A stretch of 63,508 bases of DNA, counting the filler, from Atractiella rhizophila (taxonomy: Eukaryota), in NCBI GenBank assembly GCA_021432655.1. It is 10 parts of 9 records of this genome, joined end to end, with 100 filler letters (N's around TTAATTAATTAA, not from the genome) between each part and the next. Parts side by side here need not be neighbours in the genome. Positions count along the whole stretch, not along the records: positions 42,088 to 49,167 come from MU272240.1; 9 more parts are not named here. The stretch is one strand, 5' to 3'. The notes under the pieces were generated by a model. It was not told where the DNA came from, did no database searches, and was given only the letters and a program-made list of their open reading frames with translations. This document shows positions 40,029-51,379 of the stretch, piece after piece (position 1 is the first letter of the stretch; each line of letters opens with the position of its first letter). The position numbers were made by a program, and so were the translations under genes.

Positions 40029-42087
40029 AGAGAACGAAGGACGCCCCCGAAGCGAACCTCTTGCATTCAGCCGGCTTTTTGAGCTAGCGGAGGCGGAGCG
40101 AAGAGTGAGGTCTGTGTATATAAGCACCTTTTCCTTTCAGTTTGGTCGCACACTCCTCAGGCGGTATGGAATTTCAGAGCCCTACGATACCGAAGTTCCC
40201 AGAGGTTTTAGTTGGCAAAGGGGACAAGTGAGGGTTGTTTCGGTGGGTCGGTTCAAACTGCAGTTCCGTTTCTTCGTTTTTGTTCCGCCGCTCTTCAGCA
40301 CTCCAGCGACAAAATCGCAACTGCCAGGGCGTCAACGCAAATAACTCAGATGCAAGTAGATTGTGGAAACTCTTATAGTATTTGACAACAAGTGTTACAG
40401 CAGTTATACTTTTTTTCTATATGGAATAATGCAAGCATTGGCACACTGGTGGTCAAAACAGAATTGCTTCTCCTCGCTCTAGTTGTGCACTCATGAATGT
40501 GTTCCGAGTTGAACAAGCGATCGAAGCCGTGCTCCCAGTCTTCCTTAATAAATTGGAGTTTCATCATTCTCGCTAGAGGACGCGATCAATGGCAGTTGAA
40601 GGATATATATAATGGATTATGAGGCGCCACTTTACTTTCAGTGAAGTTTGGTGAGGGATGACACTGCAAGGTGAAGATAAAGAGCTCTGAAATTCTGTAC
40701 TCTAGGGTCTTTTCGGTATAACGATCCAGCCTGATAGCGAGTCAATCAATGGTTGGAAGGCTTTTAGCGGCTGTCCGCATCCAAACAACTTCAAAGGGCT
40801 TGCGCTTGCGTTGTAAGCAGCAATGTGACGCTTATTTAACTGAACAAAGTCAGCTTTGTGTGGGCCTGGCAATTTCAGCCTCTATTTTGTTGCATCAAAC
40901 TTTCATTTTTGATGGTGAGCTTGTGGTTCATTAATTTCTGTCGCATCCCAGATCTGCTATATTATCGAAAGCGTGAGTGCTTGCTGTTCTAGAAACTGGG
41001 ATTTGACTAATTTAGTGGAATCGACCCACGCGAGCAGATCTCAGCAGATACGTCTGTGCTCAGAAATGCCTAGGTTCAAGCAAGTTGCTTCAGGACTACC
41101 TAGATGGATGCGAGTTGTCAGAACATCTTCCAGAGCTATTACAATGACCTTTGCTTAACATCACACGTGACTTGCTAGAGAAAACTCATGCCCATTTTGC
41201 CAGCTTTCAGGTAAGCGTGGGGGCTGCAACAATATATCATTTCACTGCCATTCAGTAATAATCCTCACACTTAATCGCGAAAGTTCAGATCTTTCAGAGT
41301 GCAGACAGGCACAAGTAGTACTTTCAAGGATCGATATCTGGGAGCACTTCTTGCTCTCCGGCTGAGCAGAAAATATCCTTTCTCCCTTTCATTCTCCCTG
41401 TTCTTCCAGGTGAAACCGATGGGTGCTGCGACGTTTGGGGAACAAACAGCAAAACAGAATTAGGGAACGTGGAGAGGCTCACCTTTTCAAAAGCTTGTTC
41501 GGTGGGGTCCCAGATATCTCATAGAAATGAGCGCCGTGTTTACTGGAGCTTCCTTAGGCTGTGATGTGTGTGTGATAGACTCAGGTTGCGCCTGGATTCC
41601 TCCTGCATCCACCCTTTCCCGCATTGCTGGGTCCAGGTTGACGGTCCGTGTCGGCCGCTCACAGGCCCGTTTCATGTTACTTCCAGGTCTCAAATATTCA
41701 AACGATGCACCTGCTTTGAAGCTGTCCATTCAATTTACCGGAAATTGGCCGTTCTCTGTCTCCCGAGATTGGCAATTTCACCGACAGAAACCTGGGGAGT
41801 GCAAGAAGAAGATCGCGGGGTCATCCATAAAAGGCTTTGCTGCCTTCTTCAGCAGGCGCGACTCTCTCGACGCCCATCAACAAGGTGAGTCTCGCTCGGT
41901 ATTCGGTAAACAACCTAGCCAACGTAATTTTGAAACAGGAAAGTCGACTACCATGGCTTCCGATTCTGTTAGGTCCCCGTCATTGACNNNNNNNNNNNNN
42001 NNNNNNNNNNNNNNNNNNNNNNNNNNNNNNNTTAATTAATTAANNNNNNNNNNNNNNNNNNNNNNNNNNNNNNNNNNNNNNNNNNNN

Positions 42088-43050
42088 AAGTCCGAATCAT
42101 TAGGGATCGGGTTCTCCTGCCTCTTTTCCTTCTTGACTGTTTGACAATCAATCAGGCTTTGAGGAAGAATACGAATCAAAGGACGAACAAGGCACAATTT
42201 CGCCGTTCACGACTTTAGTGGGGAAGTCAGAGTCGTTAGGAATGGGGTTCTCCTGCCTCTTCTCTTTGATGACTGTGTATCAACCAGTCAGTACTGGAGC
42301 AAGACAGACTTTTGAGACGACGAACAAGGCACGATCTCTCCATTCACTACTTTCGTAGGAAAGTCCGAATCATTAGGGATCGGGTTCTCCTGCCTCTTCT
42401 CCTTCTTGACTGTTTATGAAGGGGTTAGGTTTTGAGAAGAACACGAGTCCAAAGACGAACAAGGCACAATCTCTCCGTTCACTACTTTTGTAGGAAAGTC
42501 CGAATCATTAGGGATCGGGTTCTCCTGTCTCTTTTCCTTCTTGACTATCCATCATCCAACAGTCAGTTAGCGAGAGAGAGGCAGAGACGTAGAAAGACCA
42601 ACAAGGTACGATTTCTCCATTCACTACTTTTGTAGGAAAGTCGGAATCATTTGGGATCGGATTCTCCTGCCTCTTTTCCTTCTTGACTATTCATCCACTG
42701 CCAGTCAGTGTGCGACGAAGTGGTAAGCATTGGAAACACGAACAAGGCACGATTTCTCCATTCACTACTTTTGTAGGAAAGTCAGAGTCATTAGGAATCG
42801 GATTCTCCTGTCTCTCTTCCAACACAACGTCCGAATCAACAATCGCCACCCTTCGAACCTTCGTCCTCCTGCCCCTCTTCGCCTTCTTCCCGGACGACCC
42901 AAAGGCAGTGATGACGCCGTTGACGGATTTGGTGGCGAAGTCGCTGTCGTTCGGGAGCGGATTCAGTCCTTGTTCCTGGGGTTGGGGTACGGGGAGGGAG
43001 AAGATTTGGAGTGGGAGGAGAGCGAGGGGGAGGAGGAGTTGGATGTGCAT
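42088..43050 (-). CDS. Secreted Kex2-processed repeat-peptide precursor (KEP), one repeat per exon, 3'-truncated by contig end
   Basis: Exons 43050-42744, 42686-42603, 42544-42461, 42409-42326, 42272-42189 and 42136-<42088; GT-AG introns of 57, 58, 51, 53 and 52 nt. Signal peptide MHIQLLLPLALLPLQIFS; repeat QENPIPNDSDFPTKVVNGEIVPF(K/I)KEKR. Confidence 0.9.
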
Positions 43051-44096
43051 GTTGAGCAGATTGCAGATTAGTTTGTGGAAGGAAGAATGTAGATGGTGAA
43101 AGTCAAGTCGAAGGATGAAGACCTGCTCGGGCGAAAGATGAAGTTCACTGAACGATTGGAGAGAAGCAAAGGAATGTGTTCTGTCAAAGAACGTCAAGAG
43201 GTCTACTCGACAGAGCTGGAGGAAGACAAGAAGCGCAGAGGGAGTGGGCAGAATGAAAGGATGTATATATATTATTCAATGCTTGACCGGGAATCAATTC
43301 ATCATGCTGAGCCTTCGGTGAATACGATGCATGCTCCAGTGGTTCGATGCGTTGCGAAGACGTGAGCTGCGTTTCAGCAATTCATTCTTTCAGTTCCAGG
43401 ACATCATTGCCACGTGCCCAAACACGTCTATGCTGTCCGTACTGCCTGCGTACCTCAATGGTCAGGTGACGTGTGAAGCTGCCACTCTGAAGCGCGAAGT
43501 ACCTTTTTCTCTTTTTCTCCGTGCTATCCACAACAACTGAGCTAATGGCTGCATATCCCGAGCAAGCCGACTCGTGAAACTCGGGTTATCTCGTTAAATC
43601 GTTTGAACGGCACGGGACGCAGCTAGAAAATCAAAAGCAAACAGCAAGGTGAATCGGTACCAACAGCTCGGACTATTACCAGGGGTCCATCGCAATTCTA
43701 GTAGTTGTAACGACTGGTGACAAAAGGATATGTTGATGTGACAGACGTCCCGACTTTCATCCACCTAAGGTTTGCAAAAGCGAAAGCAAAAGCAATGTTC
43801 TGCTAATAAATTTACTTGTTGTCATGTTTTCATATTCCTGCGTGCACACTTCCATCGTTGCACGAAGCACTAACAACTTTGCAAATGTGAACAGATACTC
43901 GAGATGAATTGAAGGTATATTATTTTTTAAGGTCGAAAATTGGAGCTATGTTGATTAGGATCACAAGTGTGCTACAGTACAAGTTTTTTCTGATGAATAC
44001 AATCGGTTACAATATGCTTTTGATAAAGAGACTCGAAATCTATCATAAACTGCAAATGCGACGAATAGACCGAAAGGATCACAATGTACACAATGT

Positions 44097-46139
44097 CTAC
44101 GCCTGAGCGTACTTGCTCCACTTCCTAATCTCAGCACCCTTCTTATAGAAGAAGAACAAGATGGGAATCATGATTGCGCTCAATCCCGCCAGGAGGGAAG
44201 AGCCGCCTCCAACTCCGAGAGTCTTGAAGAGGGCGTGGCCGAAGAGAGGGAAAGCTGCGCCACCGCTCGACCTGAACAAGTCGTTTCCGGCGAGTAGGGA
44301 AGCGGCGTAAAGGGGATAGGACATGGGTAGGTAGACGATACAGGATTGGAAGAGAAGGAAGATGCCGGGGATGTAGAGGGAGGCGGAGGCGGCGATGATG
44401 GGACCCATCCAGTGGACTGAGGGACGAGAGAGCCAACCTATTATCAAATGATCGTTAGCACTTCGTCCTACGCATGAAAATGTGGGAAGACATACCAAAA
44501 AGAAGTAGAGACACTGGAATAAACAAACTTGCGACAAGGGCAACTTGTAGCCTCTCTTCAGGCACGAGAACTCCTGTGCGACGGAACTTGGGTTCGACGT
44601 GATAGTATTGGAAGGCGGCATATCCAGCGAAGGCTAGGAAACAACCGACGGCGATGCCGATGAATGGGAGTCCTTGAAGGCCTAGATTGAAGCCGTAGAT
44701 CTCTCCAAAGACGATTGGGAAGGCTTCAAACCTGCGGAATAATCAGTACTGTGATTCACGAGAGGACACTAGCACCATACCATAAGTAGAAAATGGAATA
44801 AGCCAATGCGATATACACGTTGATGAACAGCACCGCAGGCTCCAGCGCGAGCTGGAAAGGTCTCACGAGGGCTTCGTACAGCACATCCTTCGTTGTGGTG
44901 TTAGCCTGATCGATCTCGCTCTTCGACCTGAGGTTGTTGTTGCCAGTGATCTTTCTCAGCCTCTCGGCGCGCTTAAGGAGGATAGTCGCTGCATTCGTCT
45001 CCGGGAGTATGAAAGACAGAACGAGGAGCGCGAATCCGGAGATCATGAGGAGTTCGTAGAGTGGCCAGCGCCATCCAGCGTTCATAGCCGCGAAACCGCT
45101 GATGACTGGTCCCAAAACCTTTATTTGCCTTGATCAGCATTATTCGAGCAGAGACGTAGCGAGAAAGACGTACAGGTCCAAGGACAGCGCCGACGCTCCA
45201 CAGACCAATCACGTAAGGCATCTTCATCGGTGCCCAGATATCTGCCAAACTCGCTCCTCCCGTCGCAAGAGCTGGTGAGCCAACGAAACCAGTGAGGAAG
45301 CGCATGGCCATGAGGACGCTGTAGTTCGAGGTCGTGACAGCGGGAATCTGGAGGATGACGAAGAGGAAGAGTGTTGCCATGTAGATCGGGTTGCGACCAA
45401 TGGCTGGGACTTCCGACAGCGGTGAAAGAATCATCGGACCTATTCTATCGGTGTAAGGATAATCACACTCTACCTAACGCATAATACGTACCAATACCGT
45501 ATCCGAGGACGAAGAGAGAGAGGCCCAAGATCGCCTTCGTTTGCGAGACATGAAAGTACTCCATGACTCCCGGGATAGATGATGAGCTAATGCATGCCAT
45601 AAGCCACCTATTTCGCAATTGAAGTAGGAGAGAGAGACGCACTAGATTGCACTACCAATGTATACCGAAAATGTGAGCAACATGATGGCCGCAGTCACCA
45701 CGCTCTTCTTCCTGAAGCTCCAATTTTGGGGGTTCTCCTGATCGTCGTCTGCGTACCATCCCACCAAAAAGACATCCTCCTCAGCAACCTTCTCCCCTTC
45801 CTTCCCCTTCTCCAGGTCGCCTACTAAAGTCTCAGTCCTCGATACTGGAAGCTTCTCCTTGCTCGCTGTCCGCGACAGTGCACGGGCGGTCTCGTCCACA
45901 AGGGTATCGTTCCGCTCGATCTCGAGCGTCTTCTTTACCGCTAGTCTTTCCGGGCGAGATGGGGCTTCCGAAACGAGGGTATCTATAGATGCATTATTCG
46001 AAGCTCGGATTGGCCGTTTTTGCAGGAATTTTGAGGGGATTTCGAAGTCTCGTCGCTCTTCGGGATAAGGAAGAAACCGCCCTTTGGAAGCTGCGTGAAT
46101 AAACTGTCCAATTATTGATTCTCGTAGTAGTGCAGACAT
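44097..46139 (-). CDS. MFS multidrug transporter, DHA1 family (Flr1/Caf5/Mdr1-like), multi-exon
   Basis: [104 protein letters not shown]. Confidence 0.93.
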
Positions 46140-48149
46140 TATTGCTTGGGGTTAATCTAAAGTAGAGTCTATACGTCGATGGTTGTTGGCTTAGAATGTG
46201 AGTGGGATTGACGCTCACCTCTCCCTCTTGTAGACCCTTTTAAACGCTCCCTCCGCCTCCACATCCTGAATGAAAAATCTCATAATCCACTAACAATTTT
46301 CTTACCGCCGACGCCCTCGCCGCGCTGAGCCACAAAATTCTCGCTTTGTTGCTGACTGAAAGTGGAGTAATCAATGTCAGAGTTCAACAATCCGGCCTTC
46401 CAGAACACTTATGACGCCAGAGTGAAACCGTCTTCGGCGTCGGCGTTGATTACACCTTCCTCCACCTTCCAGAACTTCTACAATGACGTAACGTTAAGTC
46501 GGTGTTAGCTCCTGCTCCACCACCGCAGGAATAAAGGAAGAGACGGTCTTTCAGCAACTTGGCTTTTTAGCGCGTTATGACCACAGCGATCGTTATGCGA
46601 CAGGCATCTGGACATTCTTGCGGACATTTTTCTTCACCATGATGCGGAGGGTTGTGTTGGACAGTGGATTAAGGTGGCCAGTACGTATATCCGTGATGGA
46701 AAAAGGATGAAAGGAAAGGGATCATTCTAGATAGTGATTTAAAGCTGGAGGACAAGCCAATTTGTCGATACCTTATAAAAGTTGTGTCTGAGTGCAGCAA
46801 TTTCGAAGTAAAGTCAGCATGCGAGGTTCTTGTTGCTGATTTGGCAAAACTCAATCTGGTTAAAGCTTCATCGCGAGTAGCTGGAAACATGACTTGATAA
46901 GTTCAATAAATCTAAATCGGTGCAGGCACACTACCGTCTTATCAATTCCTGGATGCCATTGCTTCTCGTTTCACTTCATTGCAATCAACTGGGACCTTTA
47001 ACGAACGATAGTTGGGAATTATGAAGTTCTCATCGGGTTTTAAAGGACTCTAAACGGCATTGTTGGCATCTTTGAGCGGTGGACTAAGCATTACTTTCTG
47101 TCTTCATACTTCTCCCTCAGTTTCACTCTCTTCAGCTTCAGTTTTCATCCCCTACATCGCTTTCCGGAACCCGAAGATCAGTAGGATCCCTAAAACATTG
47201 TGAATCAAGTGCTGATATTGAAGTAAAACTACTGTCTGCATTGGTCCAGGACGGTAGTCTCCATAATAATTCATGGCATCTTCCACTCGTACCATCTGTC
47301 GAGTTCCTAAACGAAGATATCCAGCAATAAAGGTGGACGCGGACTGTCATATGTGAGGTGTCGACTGTTCTGAAAACGTGCCATCGCAGCATAATCTTCA
47401 TCAAATTCTCGAACTCATTTCTGGCACTTCACCAGCATAACTTGACGCAAATGTCGGGATTGACTGGTACCACGTTGTAGAACTCTGGAGAGTCACGAAT
47501 ACGTTGAAGGACTTCTTCCCTGGTAGGCATTTCGGTAATCTCTATATTTTTTTTGCGTGGAAGAAACCGACAAAAGGCGTCCGCTACCAGCTGTGAGAAG
47601 CTTAGAGCATGGGAAATATCAGGCCAGGTCGGGAGGCTCATATATTCTATCACAGCGAAGCCAATAAGGAGGAGGATCCTCTGGGTCGAACCAGTGCCTC
47701 TAATTAACTGGATTTGCTTGAAGGTCTCTGCTCACTCGGTATCAATTAATAAAGGCCAGGATCAGTTGGTACATTGCTAAGCGTTGCATACTTGCTTCGT
47801 CAATAAGAAGCTTTAAGAGCTTCAGCTCACCTTGTCGGCACAAATACTAGCTGATTAGCCAGCCGCAGCCTCCCGAGTATTATTTCATAATATTTAGTCC
47901 CAAGGCCATAGCGTTCTTTTTGCTACCGCCTTCGAGCGGATTCAAGCGGTCGAGGTCGTCGCTGGTTATCATGACGAAAGGACAGTTGTGAAATGTGAAA
48001 ATCAATCCGAAATGCCATCCGTTCTCTTCGCCACTGGCTGAAGGCAAGAATCAACAGGGATAATAGTAAAAGAAGGGAGGGCCCATTTACATTATACAGC
48101 ACAATAGCTTCACAACAGTTGCGTAGTGTACTCTCTGCTCAATAAATGG

Positions 48150-48836
48150 TCAATCGTAATGCTTCCTCCCCCACTCTTCTGTTCCGTTAGCTTCTGCTCG
48201 CAAATTCACTTTCATGATCCACTCCTTCACATGCACATCTTCCAGTCCAACCCCTCCCAGTTCCAAGATCGGTTTTGGGAGTTCTTTCTCATCGAACGAA
48301 CCTGCCTCCAGGAACAGAGAGGAAGCCGAAGACGCCTCGGAAGAGTAGTAAGGGGAAGAGTAGAAAGTGGCCTCTGAACTCGACAATGGTAAGGAAAAGT
48401 TGCGTCCTTCATCTGTTGGGCGAGGATTATAGTGGAGGAGAGCAGGTGGCAGAGACGGAGAACAGGTGCAGAGTGAGTCTAGATCCAAGGTCGTGTTGGC
48501 GTCGTCATCATCTCCGAGCCTTTTCGCCTTCGCCGTTGGCGTAGAGGCAGCGGAAAAGTCATTGACTTCGTGCTCTGTGATAGAAAGATGCCTAGTGGTT
48601 ATCCTCGGCGTTTCCCTCGAATTCGAAGACACAATAGGTGACGAGTTGCTTCTTTTCTGCTTCGGACGTTTCGACTGCGGCGTTGCCCCCAACAACTCGC
48701 CCTTGTCCCAGCGCTCCCACTCCCAGCTCAGTTCACCGCGCTCCGAGAACGCCTGGAGGGCAGCGAACTTTTTCTTCGCCTGCAAACCGGCCGTCATTAC
48801 CTCGTTGAGGCCAGTGGAGTTCGTCATCATCTTCAA
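48150..48836 (-). CDS. Hypothetical protein, 3' exon (Ser-rich), unidentified
   Basis: 228-aa ORF with coding-like composition; probably continues upstream to the contig end at 49167. No recognisable domain. Confidence 0.4.
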   Translation of the reverse strand: MKMMTNSTGLNEVMTAGLQAKKKFAALQAFSERGELSWEWERWDKGELLGATPQSKRPKQKRSNSSPIVSSNSRETPRITTRHLSITEHEVNDFSAASTPTAKAKRLGDDDDANTTLDLDSLCTCSPSLPPALLHYNPRPTDEGRNFSLPLSSSEATFYSSPYYSSEASSASSLFLEAGSFDEKELPKPILELGGVGLEDVHVKEWIMKVNLRAEANGTEEWGRKHYD

Positions 48837-51379
48837 TAACTAACTCAGCTCCACCGAACTTGATGCCAGAGGAAGCAGCGCACCTTGATCCAATAATTAA
48901 CAATATAAGGTATCTTTGTCTTTTTCTAGCTCTCTAAGCAGGTACAACAGCCGCTTCGTCCAGTTGAAGAACGAATTGTGCACAATGTTCCCTCGGGCGG
49001 GCGGACGCGTCTGGGAAGGGCTTCTAATTTGTCCACAATCGATCAGGAGCTACAAAATCATGTTTAAGGAGGAGAGTAAGAGGATAATGATGGGGTTGAA
49101 TAGAGCTGGAGTTGCTGGACCAGGGAAAACTGATTGGTTGTTCGGAGCCAGAACAACATTGCGTTGCNNNNNNNNNNNNNNNNNNNNNNNNNNNNNNNNN
49201 NNNNNNNNNNNTTAATTAATTAANNNNNNNNNNNNNNNNNNNNNNNNNNNNNNNNNNNNNNNNNNNNTCTAGAAGCAGACTGTGTGAGGATCTTGACAAC
49301 CTTATACTCTGCTGCCTTTGACCTGTTCTAAGTCAGAATATCATAACTAATTCTGTGTGCTGCTCCATACCTCAAATCCCTGCATAACCAGAACGTCGAT
49401 GTAGCCCAAAACCTACCTTTGAAACGATCTGATAATGTGTATTTAAGACTCAGCCAATCCGTGCTGGGTAGCATTGGGGAGGATGATAAGAAGGAAGTGT
49501 TTCTTCGTCAAGCAGAGTGGTCTCTGTATTACTTGGAAACCAGGTGTCAGGAATGCTCGAGGATGTATCATACCCGGTGCACCATAGGAAGCGTTGGCTT
49601 TAGAATTAAGGAGTTCAACGAGGAACTGAGGGAGAATCGTCGCATGATGGCAGCAAGAGCCTGAGACGAGAAGAGTGCAGGGGATCAAATCGAAACCCTA
49701 CTCAGCTGCCCAGCAAACTACAGTTGGTATATCAGAGTCATTACATCAATGATGTCCCTGTCAACAAACCATGCCAAGCGGAAGGCGTAATGTGTTCTGT
49801 CTTCTAAGTTGGACTGCATATGAATCCTTTTCATACTATAGTATTCCTTCGGGTTGCAGTGTTTGAAGCTGTTGAAGCCTCAAGGCTGCAAAATCTCCAG
49901 CTTTGAAATTTTCCAGTTTTAAGCTTCCAAAACTTGACGCTTTTCGTCCCAGCCGTGAAAGAAGAACGGTAAGTTGTGTAAGGTGGCTACATCAAATTTT
50001 AGGCAACCTTCCTTCCGCTGGCACCAACTCTGGGTTCTCGAAGCACAACAACCATCAAGAAGAAAAGCATGGCTAGAGCGTTCAGAGCCACCCCCTTGCA
50101 AAGAGGCAGTTCATCTAGATCGGTGGTACTGGCCCACCACACATTCAGGCCACGGATGGGGGTGAGTGGGTCCCGTTCGCCACGAAGTTTGTATCCACAT
50201 TTCAGACCAAGTGCGTAAAATATTTCACAGGAAGTGCCCAAATGCGAAGATGGCGATGTGCAGGATGAGCGCATTGTTGCTATCGGTTGCCAGTAAATAG
50301 CGCCCACTCTCCTTACCATCTAAGGAGGTATTTTTAAAACAACCTGAGCGGCCTAGTCACCTGACTCAGTCGTGAAAACATTTTTTTTTTTGTGTTTCAA
50401 ATAGTCTTTGCTGTACACAGTTTGAAAGGCGCCTACACGCGTATTCTGGTGGTATACTTAGAATTTTGAAAGGGTTATTGTGGGCGGTGATGTAAGCGCT
50501 CAAAAGTACAGGTGTCTGTCATGGTCAAAACCCGTCATGCTTTTATCTAAGGAAGTGAACCAGCTAACCATGGAACCAGGTCGTGACAACCTCGGTGTAT
50601 CTATTGTGACAAGTGATGATCGATAACAAGTCCAGAATCACGGTGCGGAAACCATCGAAGTTGGGTCAAAGTCAGTTAGCTGCAAGGGAGAGTATTGTGA
50701 AATTCGAGCGTCCAGCTAGAGAATTTCTGGGAGCTCCCCATCTCTCTGGAGAGCCGCGTACTAGAGTGTATTTGCAATGTGGACTGTCTTCCCCTGCTTG
50801 ATCTATCCCTCAGAGTCCTCAGCTCAGAGTGGTACTAGTAAGCGTTGGGCAGTGGAGATCACGTGAATCTCACCCAGCAGCAAAGGGAGAGAAAGATTTA
50901 GTTAGGGCTGGTAGCAAGTAACAATGGAATCAGAGCACAAATCAGAAATCCGAGAAAAGTGTGCCAAACTTGCTGAGCTCAAAGAGGCACGGGCACATTG
51001 AGAAGCAGAGCGACGGGGCTGCAGCCAGTGGCGGTGATGGGTAGGGATGAGCAACGGGGCGGTTACGTGATGGGTATGGGCGCTTCCATAAGTCTCTTCA
51101 CATCTAACAAATGGCGGGTGGGTGTGTCAAGGTGGTTTGCAAAGCTGGGACGCGCGTTGATGTGACGGGTAACAGGTCTAGGACGGGTTTCCACCTCACA
51201 TTATGCAATAAAAATGTTGTCTTTGTGACCTAAAGGTTGGATAGCTAGTGTAAGTTAAGATAAAAGTGTTCTTAGCCACAAAAAAGAACCAAAGAAAAGA
51301 ATAGGATATTTTTGCAATGAAACATTCAAACCGCTTTTAGCCCATCCATGTTCATTTAGCCATCTCAGCCAGAGCTACC

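Follow-up and report, generated by a model that had tools for sequence, protein, structure and literature searches.

A probable Kex2-processed repeat protein gene of Atractiella rhizophila with one symmetric exon per invariant peptide

Introduction

How can a tandem array spell out the same peptide, copy after copy, when its DNA has drifted apart? The question is raised by positions 42088–43050 of a 63.5-kb stretch of assembled DNA (hereinafter the window) from the fungus Atractiella rhizophila (Atractiellomycetes, Pucciniomycotina), where an initial annotation had described a row of duplicated exons encoding an invariant peptide. We find that the locus is very probably the gene of a Kex2-processed repeat protein (KEP), a secreted precursor of repeated identical peptides, of which the 5' two-thirds or less is visible. 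KEPs are widespread in fungi, and almost none has a known function. The copies of this array differ from one another at silent sites and in their introns, and the encoded core does not change.

Structure and splicing of the repeat gene

Tandem Repeats Finder returns one array at 42088–42820 (period 142, 5.3 copies, 78% matches, score 720). The sense strand is the minus strand, and six exons can be read in 42088–43050 from an ATG at 43050, the last of them partial. Four public runs were compared with the assembly over 42088–43300: X1, which behaves as DNA, and X3, X4 (a soil metatranscriptome) and X11 (a root metatranscriptome), which behave as RNA, X3 being a culture-type run and X4 and X11 environmental RNA. 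Other runs in the range X5–X24, with shares of 0.26–0.35 and many organism labels, do not enter as evidence of habitat or expression. Read-word depth was not taken as copy number or expression level, and parts lacking RNA were counted only where a contig joins across them. The gene is composed as follows.

42744–43050, minus strand: exon 1, coding part, 307 nt, starting at the ATG at 43050; RNA contigs in X3, X4 and X11
42687–42743, minus strand: intron 1, 57 nt; joint 42686>42744 spliced in X3 (2 contigs, depth 4675)
42603–42686, minus strand: exon 2, 84 nt, phase 1-1; sequence reading
42545–42602, minus strand: intron 2, 58 nt, GTTGGT...TAG; joint 42544>42603 spliced in X3 (depth 6779) and X4
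42461–42544, minus strand: exon 3, 84 nt, phase 1-1; sequence reading
42410–42460, minus strand: intron 3, 51 nt; joint 42409>42461 spliced in X4; zero depth in X3, X4 and X11
42326–42409, minus strand: exon 4, 84 nt, phase 1-1; sequence reading
42273–42325, minus strand: intron 4, 53 nt; joint 42272>42326 spliced in X3 and X11
42189–42272, minus strand: exon 5, 84 nt, phase 1-1; silent sites more diverged than in any other copy; spacer IKEKR
42137–42188, minus strand: intron 5, 52 nt, GTTCGT...CAG; joint 42136>42189 spliced in X3 (2 contigs, depth 7881)
42088–42136, minus strand: exon 6, of which the contig end leaves the first 49 nt (KKEKR-QENPIPNDSD...)

All five introns have GT..AG ends, with the donor GTTCGT in four and GTTGGT in one, and each carries a CTRAY branch-like motif 15–22 nt from the acceptor. 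All are in phase 1 and split a Phe codon as T|TC. Each internal exon contains the last residue of one core, the spacer KKEKR (IKEKR in exon 5, E5) and then 22 residues of the next core, QENPIPNDSDFPTKVVNGEIVP(F), and the fifth complete core lies within the last 84 nt of exon 1 (42827–42744). The coordinates of E2–E5 confirm that the four internal exons are exactly 84 nt long and symmetric in phase 1-1, as the initial annotation had it, and its description of the array proved correct in every detail checked. The result is an unusual gene structure with one symmetric exon per peptide.

RNA contigs of X3, X4 and X11 together cross all five predicted introns with CT..AC ends on the plus strand, and the minus strand is therefore sense. 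Long frames also run across the array on the plus strand; because the splice ends fix the sense strand, these are by-products of the repeat. RNA depth falls to zero in two bins lying wholly inside introns 1 (42703–42743) and 3. X1 DNA contigs tile E6p-I5-E5-I4-E4-I3-E3 and E3-I2-E2-I1-E1 (E, exon; I, intron; E6p, partial exon 6) without joints and with 0–3 differences per piece, although X1 is possibly the assembly's own sample and thus lends weak independent support. The gene is transcribed and spliced as read, in the culture-type run and in two environmental RNA samples.

With these data, an assembly artefact or a recent slippage repeat has next to no probability. The array does abut the end of a short unplaced contig, and summed X1 DNA word depth varies along it from 165 to 1207, the value upstream being 192; but the X1 contigs tile it, the three RNA runs reproduce copy-specific silent differences as well as splice joints, and the copies differ from each other at 5–19 of 84 nt, which excludes slippage of recent date. 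As regards the existence of the array the artefact reading is refuted, and only its copy number and 3' end are artefactually truncated.

Transcript variants and exon skipping

Exon 1 differs silently from the assembly at six positions in X1 and at five in X11, one being common to both. One base just 5' of the ATG also differs in X11, and X3 has both variants at 42871, the other base accounting for 18899 of 27154 depth. It seems that two alleles, nuclei or strains are in circulation, separated by fairly deep divergence at silent sites.

Such variation bears on whether the symmetric exons act as cassettes, regulated skipping of which would yield transcripts with varying peptide number and thereby control dose. 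Since all internal exons are 84 nt long and in phase 1-1, any subset of them stays in frame. The end of E1 is joined in X3 to a 20-nt start of the E4 type at a depth of 3367, compared with 4675 for E1>E2, and likewise in X11; in addition, the deposited protein model is one unit short of the DNA. However, only one silent base (GAA versus GAG) separates the 20-nt side from the start of E2, X3 has two variants at other sites too, and X11 contains no E2-type words at all, the E4-type joint being its sole E1 joint. A strain or allele whose second exon opens with the E4-type word would account for the joint in full, and a difference between alleles or strains, be it one of sequence or of copy number, explains it at least as well as skipping does; k-mer-graph contigs are unable to phase repeats, and the deposited model is not obtainable by canonical splicing (0 of 85 solutions, see below). 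Dose control by cassette exons is thus unlikely. The initial annotation's remark that symmetric exons would permit in-frame skipping holds in principle, whereas skipping itself is not shown, the one joint fitting a silent polymorphism equally well. With one 84-nt phase 1-1 exon per peptide, tuning of copy number by splicing or unequal exchange becomes testable.

Silent divergence around a constant peptide

The repeat unit encodes 28 residues, namely the core QENPIPNDSDFPTKVVNGEIVPF and the spacer KKEKR, and occurs in at least six copies including the cut one. Among the five complete cores 16 of 66 columns are variable, all 16 being third-position and silent and requiring a minimum of 18 changes. 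Non-synonymous differences are zero in all 10 pairs, while synonymous differences number 3–15 per 14.7 synonymous sites (Nei-Gojobori), giving a non-synonymous divergence (dN) of 0 and a synonymous divergence (dS) from 0.24 up to saturation. For a random change in the core the probability of being silent is 0.22 under equal rates, or 0.27 if transitions are favoured threefold, and the chance that all 16 variable columns are silent under neutrality is P = 3.5e-11 to 6.5e-10. E5 differs from the other copies in 10–15 of 22 codons, compared with 13.9 expected under full synonymous randomisation; it is at synonymous saturation and retains no DNA likeness beyond the demands of the peptide. Units E2–E6 show a single amino-acid change, in the E5 spacer, where I replaces K (FIKEKR versus FKKEKR).

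The introns have diverged as well, ranging from 51 to 58 nt in length and from 56 to 73% in pairwise identity (global alignment). Introns 3 and 5 are 0.73 identical, above the maximum of 200 shuffles (0.65), and introns 1 and 2 are 0.68 identical (shuffle maximum 0.63); the other 8 of the 10 pairs do not exceed the best of 200 shuffles, two tying with the maximum and six lying below it. Identical cores in spite of many differing third positions, a single K-to-I change confined to the spacer, introns differing in length and sequence with 3 and 5 alike, and a pairwise dN/dS comparison of exon cores in which dN stays at zero: in each of these respects the initial annotation, which had proposed the last as a check, is borne out.

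Between-run differences follow the same rule. The contigs of the other runs depart from the assembly at 21 positions, three in intron 2, one base 5' of the ATG and 17 in coding sequence; all 17 coding differences are third-position and silent, so selection on the peptide and on exon 1 is visible between alleles or strains too.

These data support purifying selection on the exact peptide as the force that keeps the repeats identical. Either gene conversion or slippage of recent date would have evened out the silent sites too. With silent divergence reaching up to saturation and most introns at shuffle level, the old tandem duplication of exon plus intron under strong purifying selection that was originally proposed, as opposed to recent slippage, is upheld. 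The array would have grown by tandem duplication of a unit of ~137 nt, consisting of one exon and one phase-1 intron located in the terminal Phe codon; the duplications would be old and without later homogenisation, purifying selection alone keeping the peptides identical. The array also provides a clean measure of constraint, in that silent sites reach saturation with 0 amino-acid changes in 22 codons, as expected of a ligand recognised over its full length.

Architecture of the precursor

The RNA-supported reading comprises one degenerate, five complete and one cut core, with the 3' end open. Exon 1 contains, in order, a hydrophobic N-terminus of ~19 residues, the degenerate core, a basic pro-region and the first perfect core. 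Residues 1–19 (MHIQLLLPLALLPLQIFSL) have a mean Kyte-Doolittle hydropathy of 1.7–2.0, followed by a polar stretch with negative values. The degenerate first core, QEQGLNPLPNDSDFATKSVNGVITAF, lies at about 42901–42978, and the first perfect core at 42744–42813. In the same reading, KR or RR sites occur at residues 58, 61, 66, 107, 135, 163, 191 and 219, with KR, RR and RR in the pro-region, and EKR stands directly before five of the six perfect cores. The core junctions follow the pattern ...EKR|QENP...IVPF|KKEKR, with Gln as the first residue and Phe before the basic residues. The core itself carries a net charge of -3, contains no Cys, Tyr or Trp, and is short, acidic and proline-rich.

Following Le Marquer 2019, Umemura 2020 and Vogt 2022, a KEP is recognised by an N-terminal signal peptide, by several identical or near-identical repeats, by dibasic Kex2 sites (KR or RR) between them and by cleavage that sets the peptides free, which has been shown for the Coprinopsis cinerea relative only. 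Here five complete cores are identical, in addition to the cut and the degenerate one, KR/RR sites separate the repeats, and the hydrophobic N-terminus may be a signal peptide. The matching deposited protein, P0001 (199 aa, 'hypothetical protein BT69DRAFT_37826 [Atractiella rhizophila]'), belongs to no Pfam family and has no match to Pfam MF_alpha or MF_alpha_N at E<=1. All matches in the ESM Atlas score below 0.9 and serve as leads only, an MF_alpha cluster among them at rank 4 with a score of 0.81; a near-length protein search with exon 1 as query gave 2 candidates, none of them scored.

Relationship to the KEP 497993 family

A phmmer search of 1.84 billion proteins (cut-off E<=1e-3) returned 10 proteins, the query itself included. 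Five of these (P0005 and P0007–P0010) are, judged by reading, small secreted repeat precursors whose cores conform to ..P-A/E-E-x-P/A-T-K-x-x-N/A-G-x-I-x-P/A-Y/F followed by basic pairs. P0005 matches at E = 5e-5, P0007 from Mrakia frigida (Tremellomycetes) at 1.5e-4 and P0009 from Somion occarium (Polyporales) at 8e-4. The Mrakia frigida homologue bears the identifier BDY24DRAFT_374215. A profile built from six sequences found five more relatives, P0011–P0015, and BLASTP of relatives against P0001, in which the units align in register, gave E-values of 9e-18 (44% identity over 107 residues), 2e-11 and 3e-9.

This type of core is also borne by KEP 497993 of Coprinopsis cinerea. The available text of PMC9769878 (Vogt et al. 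2022) reports that pyro-QIPAELPTKSINGNIEPY and a form with an additional K were found by mass spectrometry in C. cinerea and, on expression there, in Pichia, that the peptides are gone in a C. cinerea kep knockout, that at least 13 agaricomycete homologues exist and that synthetic 497993 peptides have no antibacterial activity. Aligned by eye, the published peptide QIPAELPTKSINGNIEPY and the Atractiella core have IP, PTK, NG, I, P and the terminal aromatic residue in common. In both cases a secreted or putatively secreted repeat precursor shows the motif Q..IP.(E/D)..PTK..NG.I.P(Y/F) followed by basic residues, a Gln start, and a linear, acidic peptide, detected or predicted, of about 18–23 residues. 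The features that mark the family, namely homology of the units and a core with Gln after the cleavage site and Tyr or Phe before basic residues, are present here. Judged by sequence, the Atractiella gene is a pucciniomycete member of a 497993-like family.

The two systems also differ. Peptide 497993 is described in the available text of PMC9769878 as conserved 'among agaricomycetes', whereas Atractiella belongs to the Pucciniomycotina. The Atractiella core is longer, starts with QEN and has a 2-residue insertion (NDSD versus AE), and its copies are all identical. Finally, each Atractiella repeat has its own 84-nt exon, while the available text of PMC9769878 touches on introns only where cDNA was amplified for 'intron-less' KEP sequences.

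The KEP kind and the 497993-like family are already known; this gene, a discussion of introns between KEP repeats and a 497993-like family outside Agaricomycetes were not found in print. Atractiella is not named in the main texts or supplements of the KEP catalogues PMC6339444 and PMC7329392, nor were words of the core found in their supplements (which are possibly incomplete). The words 'intron' and 'exon' occur 0 times in these two papers and once in PMC9769878, in the passage on intron-less cDNA just cited; a layout of one 84-nt phase 1-1 exon per peptide is mentioned in none of the three, and no KEP passage was found in the available text of the fruiting-body review PMC10282164. The one KEP family with mass-spectrometric proof in mushrooms extends to Pucciniomycotina and, via P0007, to a tremellomycete yeast. 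The family probably predates the split of the basidiomycete subphyla, and its presence across them argues for a conserved endogenous role.

Three further hits were set aside or stand apart. The Pfam label PF20953 on P0011 is spurious, arising from summed repeats without any single passing stretch. The one confirmed metagenome locus among 186 pattern matches (L001) is bacterial and ExbD/TolR-like and has only the word KEKRQENP in common with the array. P0003 (796 aa) consists of ~17 repeats of the type ...VPVPSAMVNGKIVPVA.PEEL... without dibasic sites and has the word VNG.IVP in common with the family; it may be related at a distance without being processed, or the likeness may be due to chance.

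Predicted processing and possible role

From the C. cinerea data and the processing of alpha-factor we infer, by analogy, secretion, cleavage, pyroglutamate formation and a biological role for the product. The putative signal peptide would direct the precursor to the secretory pathway, a protease of the Kex2 type would cut after each ...EKR, a Kex1-type carboxypeptidase would remove the basic tail, and the new N-terminal Gln would cyclise to pyroglutamate. Each mRNA would give at least six identical, acidic, linear, secreted peptides of about 23–26 residues, with the dose set by repeat number.

The archetype of KEPs is the MFalpha1 alpha-factor precursor of Saccharomyces cerevisiae, which is processed by Kex2, Kex1 and an aminopeptidase. 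The Atractiella precursor resembles it in its pro-region and its tandem identical peptides of the Kex2-released kind, multiple copies meaning dose, and may do so in having a signal peptide, but has no sequence relation to it and lacks the X-Ala/X-Pro spacers cut by Ste13. The available text of PMC6339444 likewise describes the processing of the alpha-factor precursor. Tandem identical peptides with a Gln start and dibasic flanks are also found in ant hymenoptaecin and bee apidaecin precursors, whose repeats are read as an amplification of the response in the available text of PMC3415428; these are unrelated in sequence and kingdom. According to the same text the gene for ant hymenoptaecin carries one intron, located in the pro-region, and all its repeats in one exon, in contrast to the exon per repeat of Atractiella.

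The most likely role of the peptide would be that of a specific extracellular signal or recognition peptide, which we favour over an antimicrobial or structural one because constraint acts on every residue and the motif has been retained across Basidiomycota. That 22–23 residues stay invariant while silent sites are saturated, and that the motif is conserved in two basidiomycete subphyla, suggests a specific partner that recognises the peptide over its whole length. To our knowledge the core resembles plant peptide hormones in nothing beyond the PIP tripeptide; mimicry of plant hormones was dropped on inspection by eye, the family occurring in saprotrophs.

Rep1 of Ustilago maydis is a Kex2-cut basidiomycete repeat protein. 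If the Atractiella peptides resembled the repellents released from it, they would be wall-associated and structural, forming a coat instead of a diffusible signal. X3 RNA word depth reaches about 71,000, as an abundant coat component might, depth being a poor measure of expression; but the peptide is short, acidic and proline-rich, and its C. cinerea relatives were extracted from tissue as soluble peptides, according to the available text of PMC9769878. We regard a structural coat as very unlikely.

Several observations weigh against the reading of the locus as a KEP gene of the 497993-like family with a signalling product. The N-terminal ~19 residues were taken as a putative signal peptide by hydropathy alone, and EER, which contains no dibasic pair, stands before the first perfect core. 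Kex1 trimming of KKEKR would leave ...FKKE unless KK is also cut, and the mature C-terminus may be F, FK, FKK or FKKE. Four of the 10 phmmer matches (P0002, P0003, P0004 and P0006) are other repeat proteins, judged by eye to be unrelated or doubtful, and what ties the gene to 497993 is an alignment by eye with the published peptide, together with relatives of agaricomycete type, and not the precursor sequence. It is conservation alone that argues for the proposed signalling role, and in the available text of PMC9769878 the C. cinerea kep knockout had no growth or fruiting phenotype and no function was found. Finally, the array is cut by the contig end, and its copy number and 3' end are missing from the assembly.

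A bolder form of the signalling reading, which we hold to be improbable, would make the peptide an ancient Basidiomycota-wide hormone with all 23 residues read by a conserved receptor; in Atractiella, cassette exons would set peptide number by splicing or unequal exchange, and silent and intron divergence would itself be favoured. If this were true, peptide dose could be tuned per transcript or per allele, for example during root colonisation, and the saturated divergence would shield a long array of identical peptides from recombinational collapse.

Contig end and deposited gene model

Nine identical linkers of the form N44-TTAATTAATTAA-N44 lie within 3368–56446 of the window. From 5876 on, the blocks between them measure 7157, 7156, 7148, 7127, 7124, 7080 and 7079 nt, followed by at least 7062 nt to the end of the window, and a block of 2,308 nt stands ahead of the 7157-nt block. 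The window is a chain of unplaced contigs, apparently arranged by size, not a single chromosome stretch, and any feature spanning a linker is artificial. One linker adjoins the array.

41988–42087, no strand: artificial linker N44-TTAATTAATTAA-N44, joining two unrelated contigs; the sequence to its left lies outside the gene

The peptide gene lies in the block 42088–49167, a contig of 7,080 bp, exactly as long as the one that carries P0001, and the array runs to the first base of that contig. Position 42088, which the initial annotation gave as the start of the array, is thus no biological boundary; it is the first contig base after the linker. The 49-nt fragment of exon 6 is 1 nt away from the corresponding stretch of E3, and likewise 1 nt from that of E4; as its words are common to E3 and E4, a short-read graph must branch at the contig end. 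In X11 an RNA contig passes through E4 and E5 into another E3-like exon, of which it covers 77 nt with 8 differences, and the array therefore goes on past the contig end. No further copy of the core turned up when the whole window was searched for the motif in six frames.

The deposited model, P0001, has four cores only, one unit fewer than the DNA, and no IKEKR spacer, with K where E5 encodes I. Its C-terminal end is a read-through of intron 5 to a stop, and in the RNA intron 5 is spliced out. None of the 85 formal single-intron solutions for P0001 has canonical GT..AG ends, and combinations of exons that reach its length disagree with it at the K/I residue. What was deposited is a collapsed model of 199 aa, which no canonical splice of this DNA yields. 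Short-read assemblies and gene models truncate or collapse genes of this kind, and KEP surveys based on predicted proteomes will undercount or miscount them; insect multipeptide genes too are broken or mis-modelled in short-read assemblies, according to the available text of PMC3415428.

Neighbouring genes and upstream region

A Pfam scan covered 9 open reading frames of >=80 aa on the contig together with exon 1. The frames of a major facilitator superfamily (MFS) transporter lie at 44097–46151 on the minus strand, ~1 kb upstream of the ATG, split by short introns (MFS_1, 1.9e-9 and 1.7e-6). The minus-strand frames at 47138–47731 (96+100 aa) and 48150–48839 (229 aa, Ser- and basic-rich) have no Pfam match at E<=0.01.

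This neighbourhood bears on whether the gene encodes the precursor of a heavily modified RiPP (ribosomally synthesised and post-translationally modified peptide), of the dikaritin/ustiloxin or another class, with tailoring enzymes encoded nearby. UstA and other fungal RiPP precursors are likewise repeat proteins cut by Kex2, with many near-identical cores (available texts of PMC7329392 and PMC6339444), and the transporter gene stands on the same strand as the peptide gene. Against this, Pfam on the 10 frames of the 7,080-bp contig, where 6 kb is visible on one side, finds MFS_1 only and no DUF3328/UstYa, tyrosinase, methyltransferase or P450. The Atractiella core, in contrast to that of UstA, contains no Tyr, and it lacks Trp and Cys as well. 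The C. cinerea peptides of the 497993 type are linear, with pyroglutamate as their sole modification (available text of PMC9769878). A RiPP precursor is accordingly highly improbable. There is no evidence of a functional link between the MFS transporter gene and the peptide gene.

Two features can be placed upstream of the coding sequence.

43051–43209, minus strand: probable 5' untranslated region; RNA contigs end at 43209 (X4) and 43200 (X11) and X1 DNA continues, which is a weak hint
about 43263–43272, minus strand: TATA-like TATATATA stretch upstream of the probable 5' untranslated region, read from sequence

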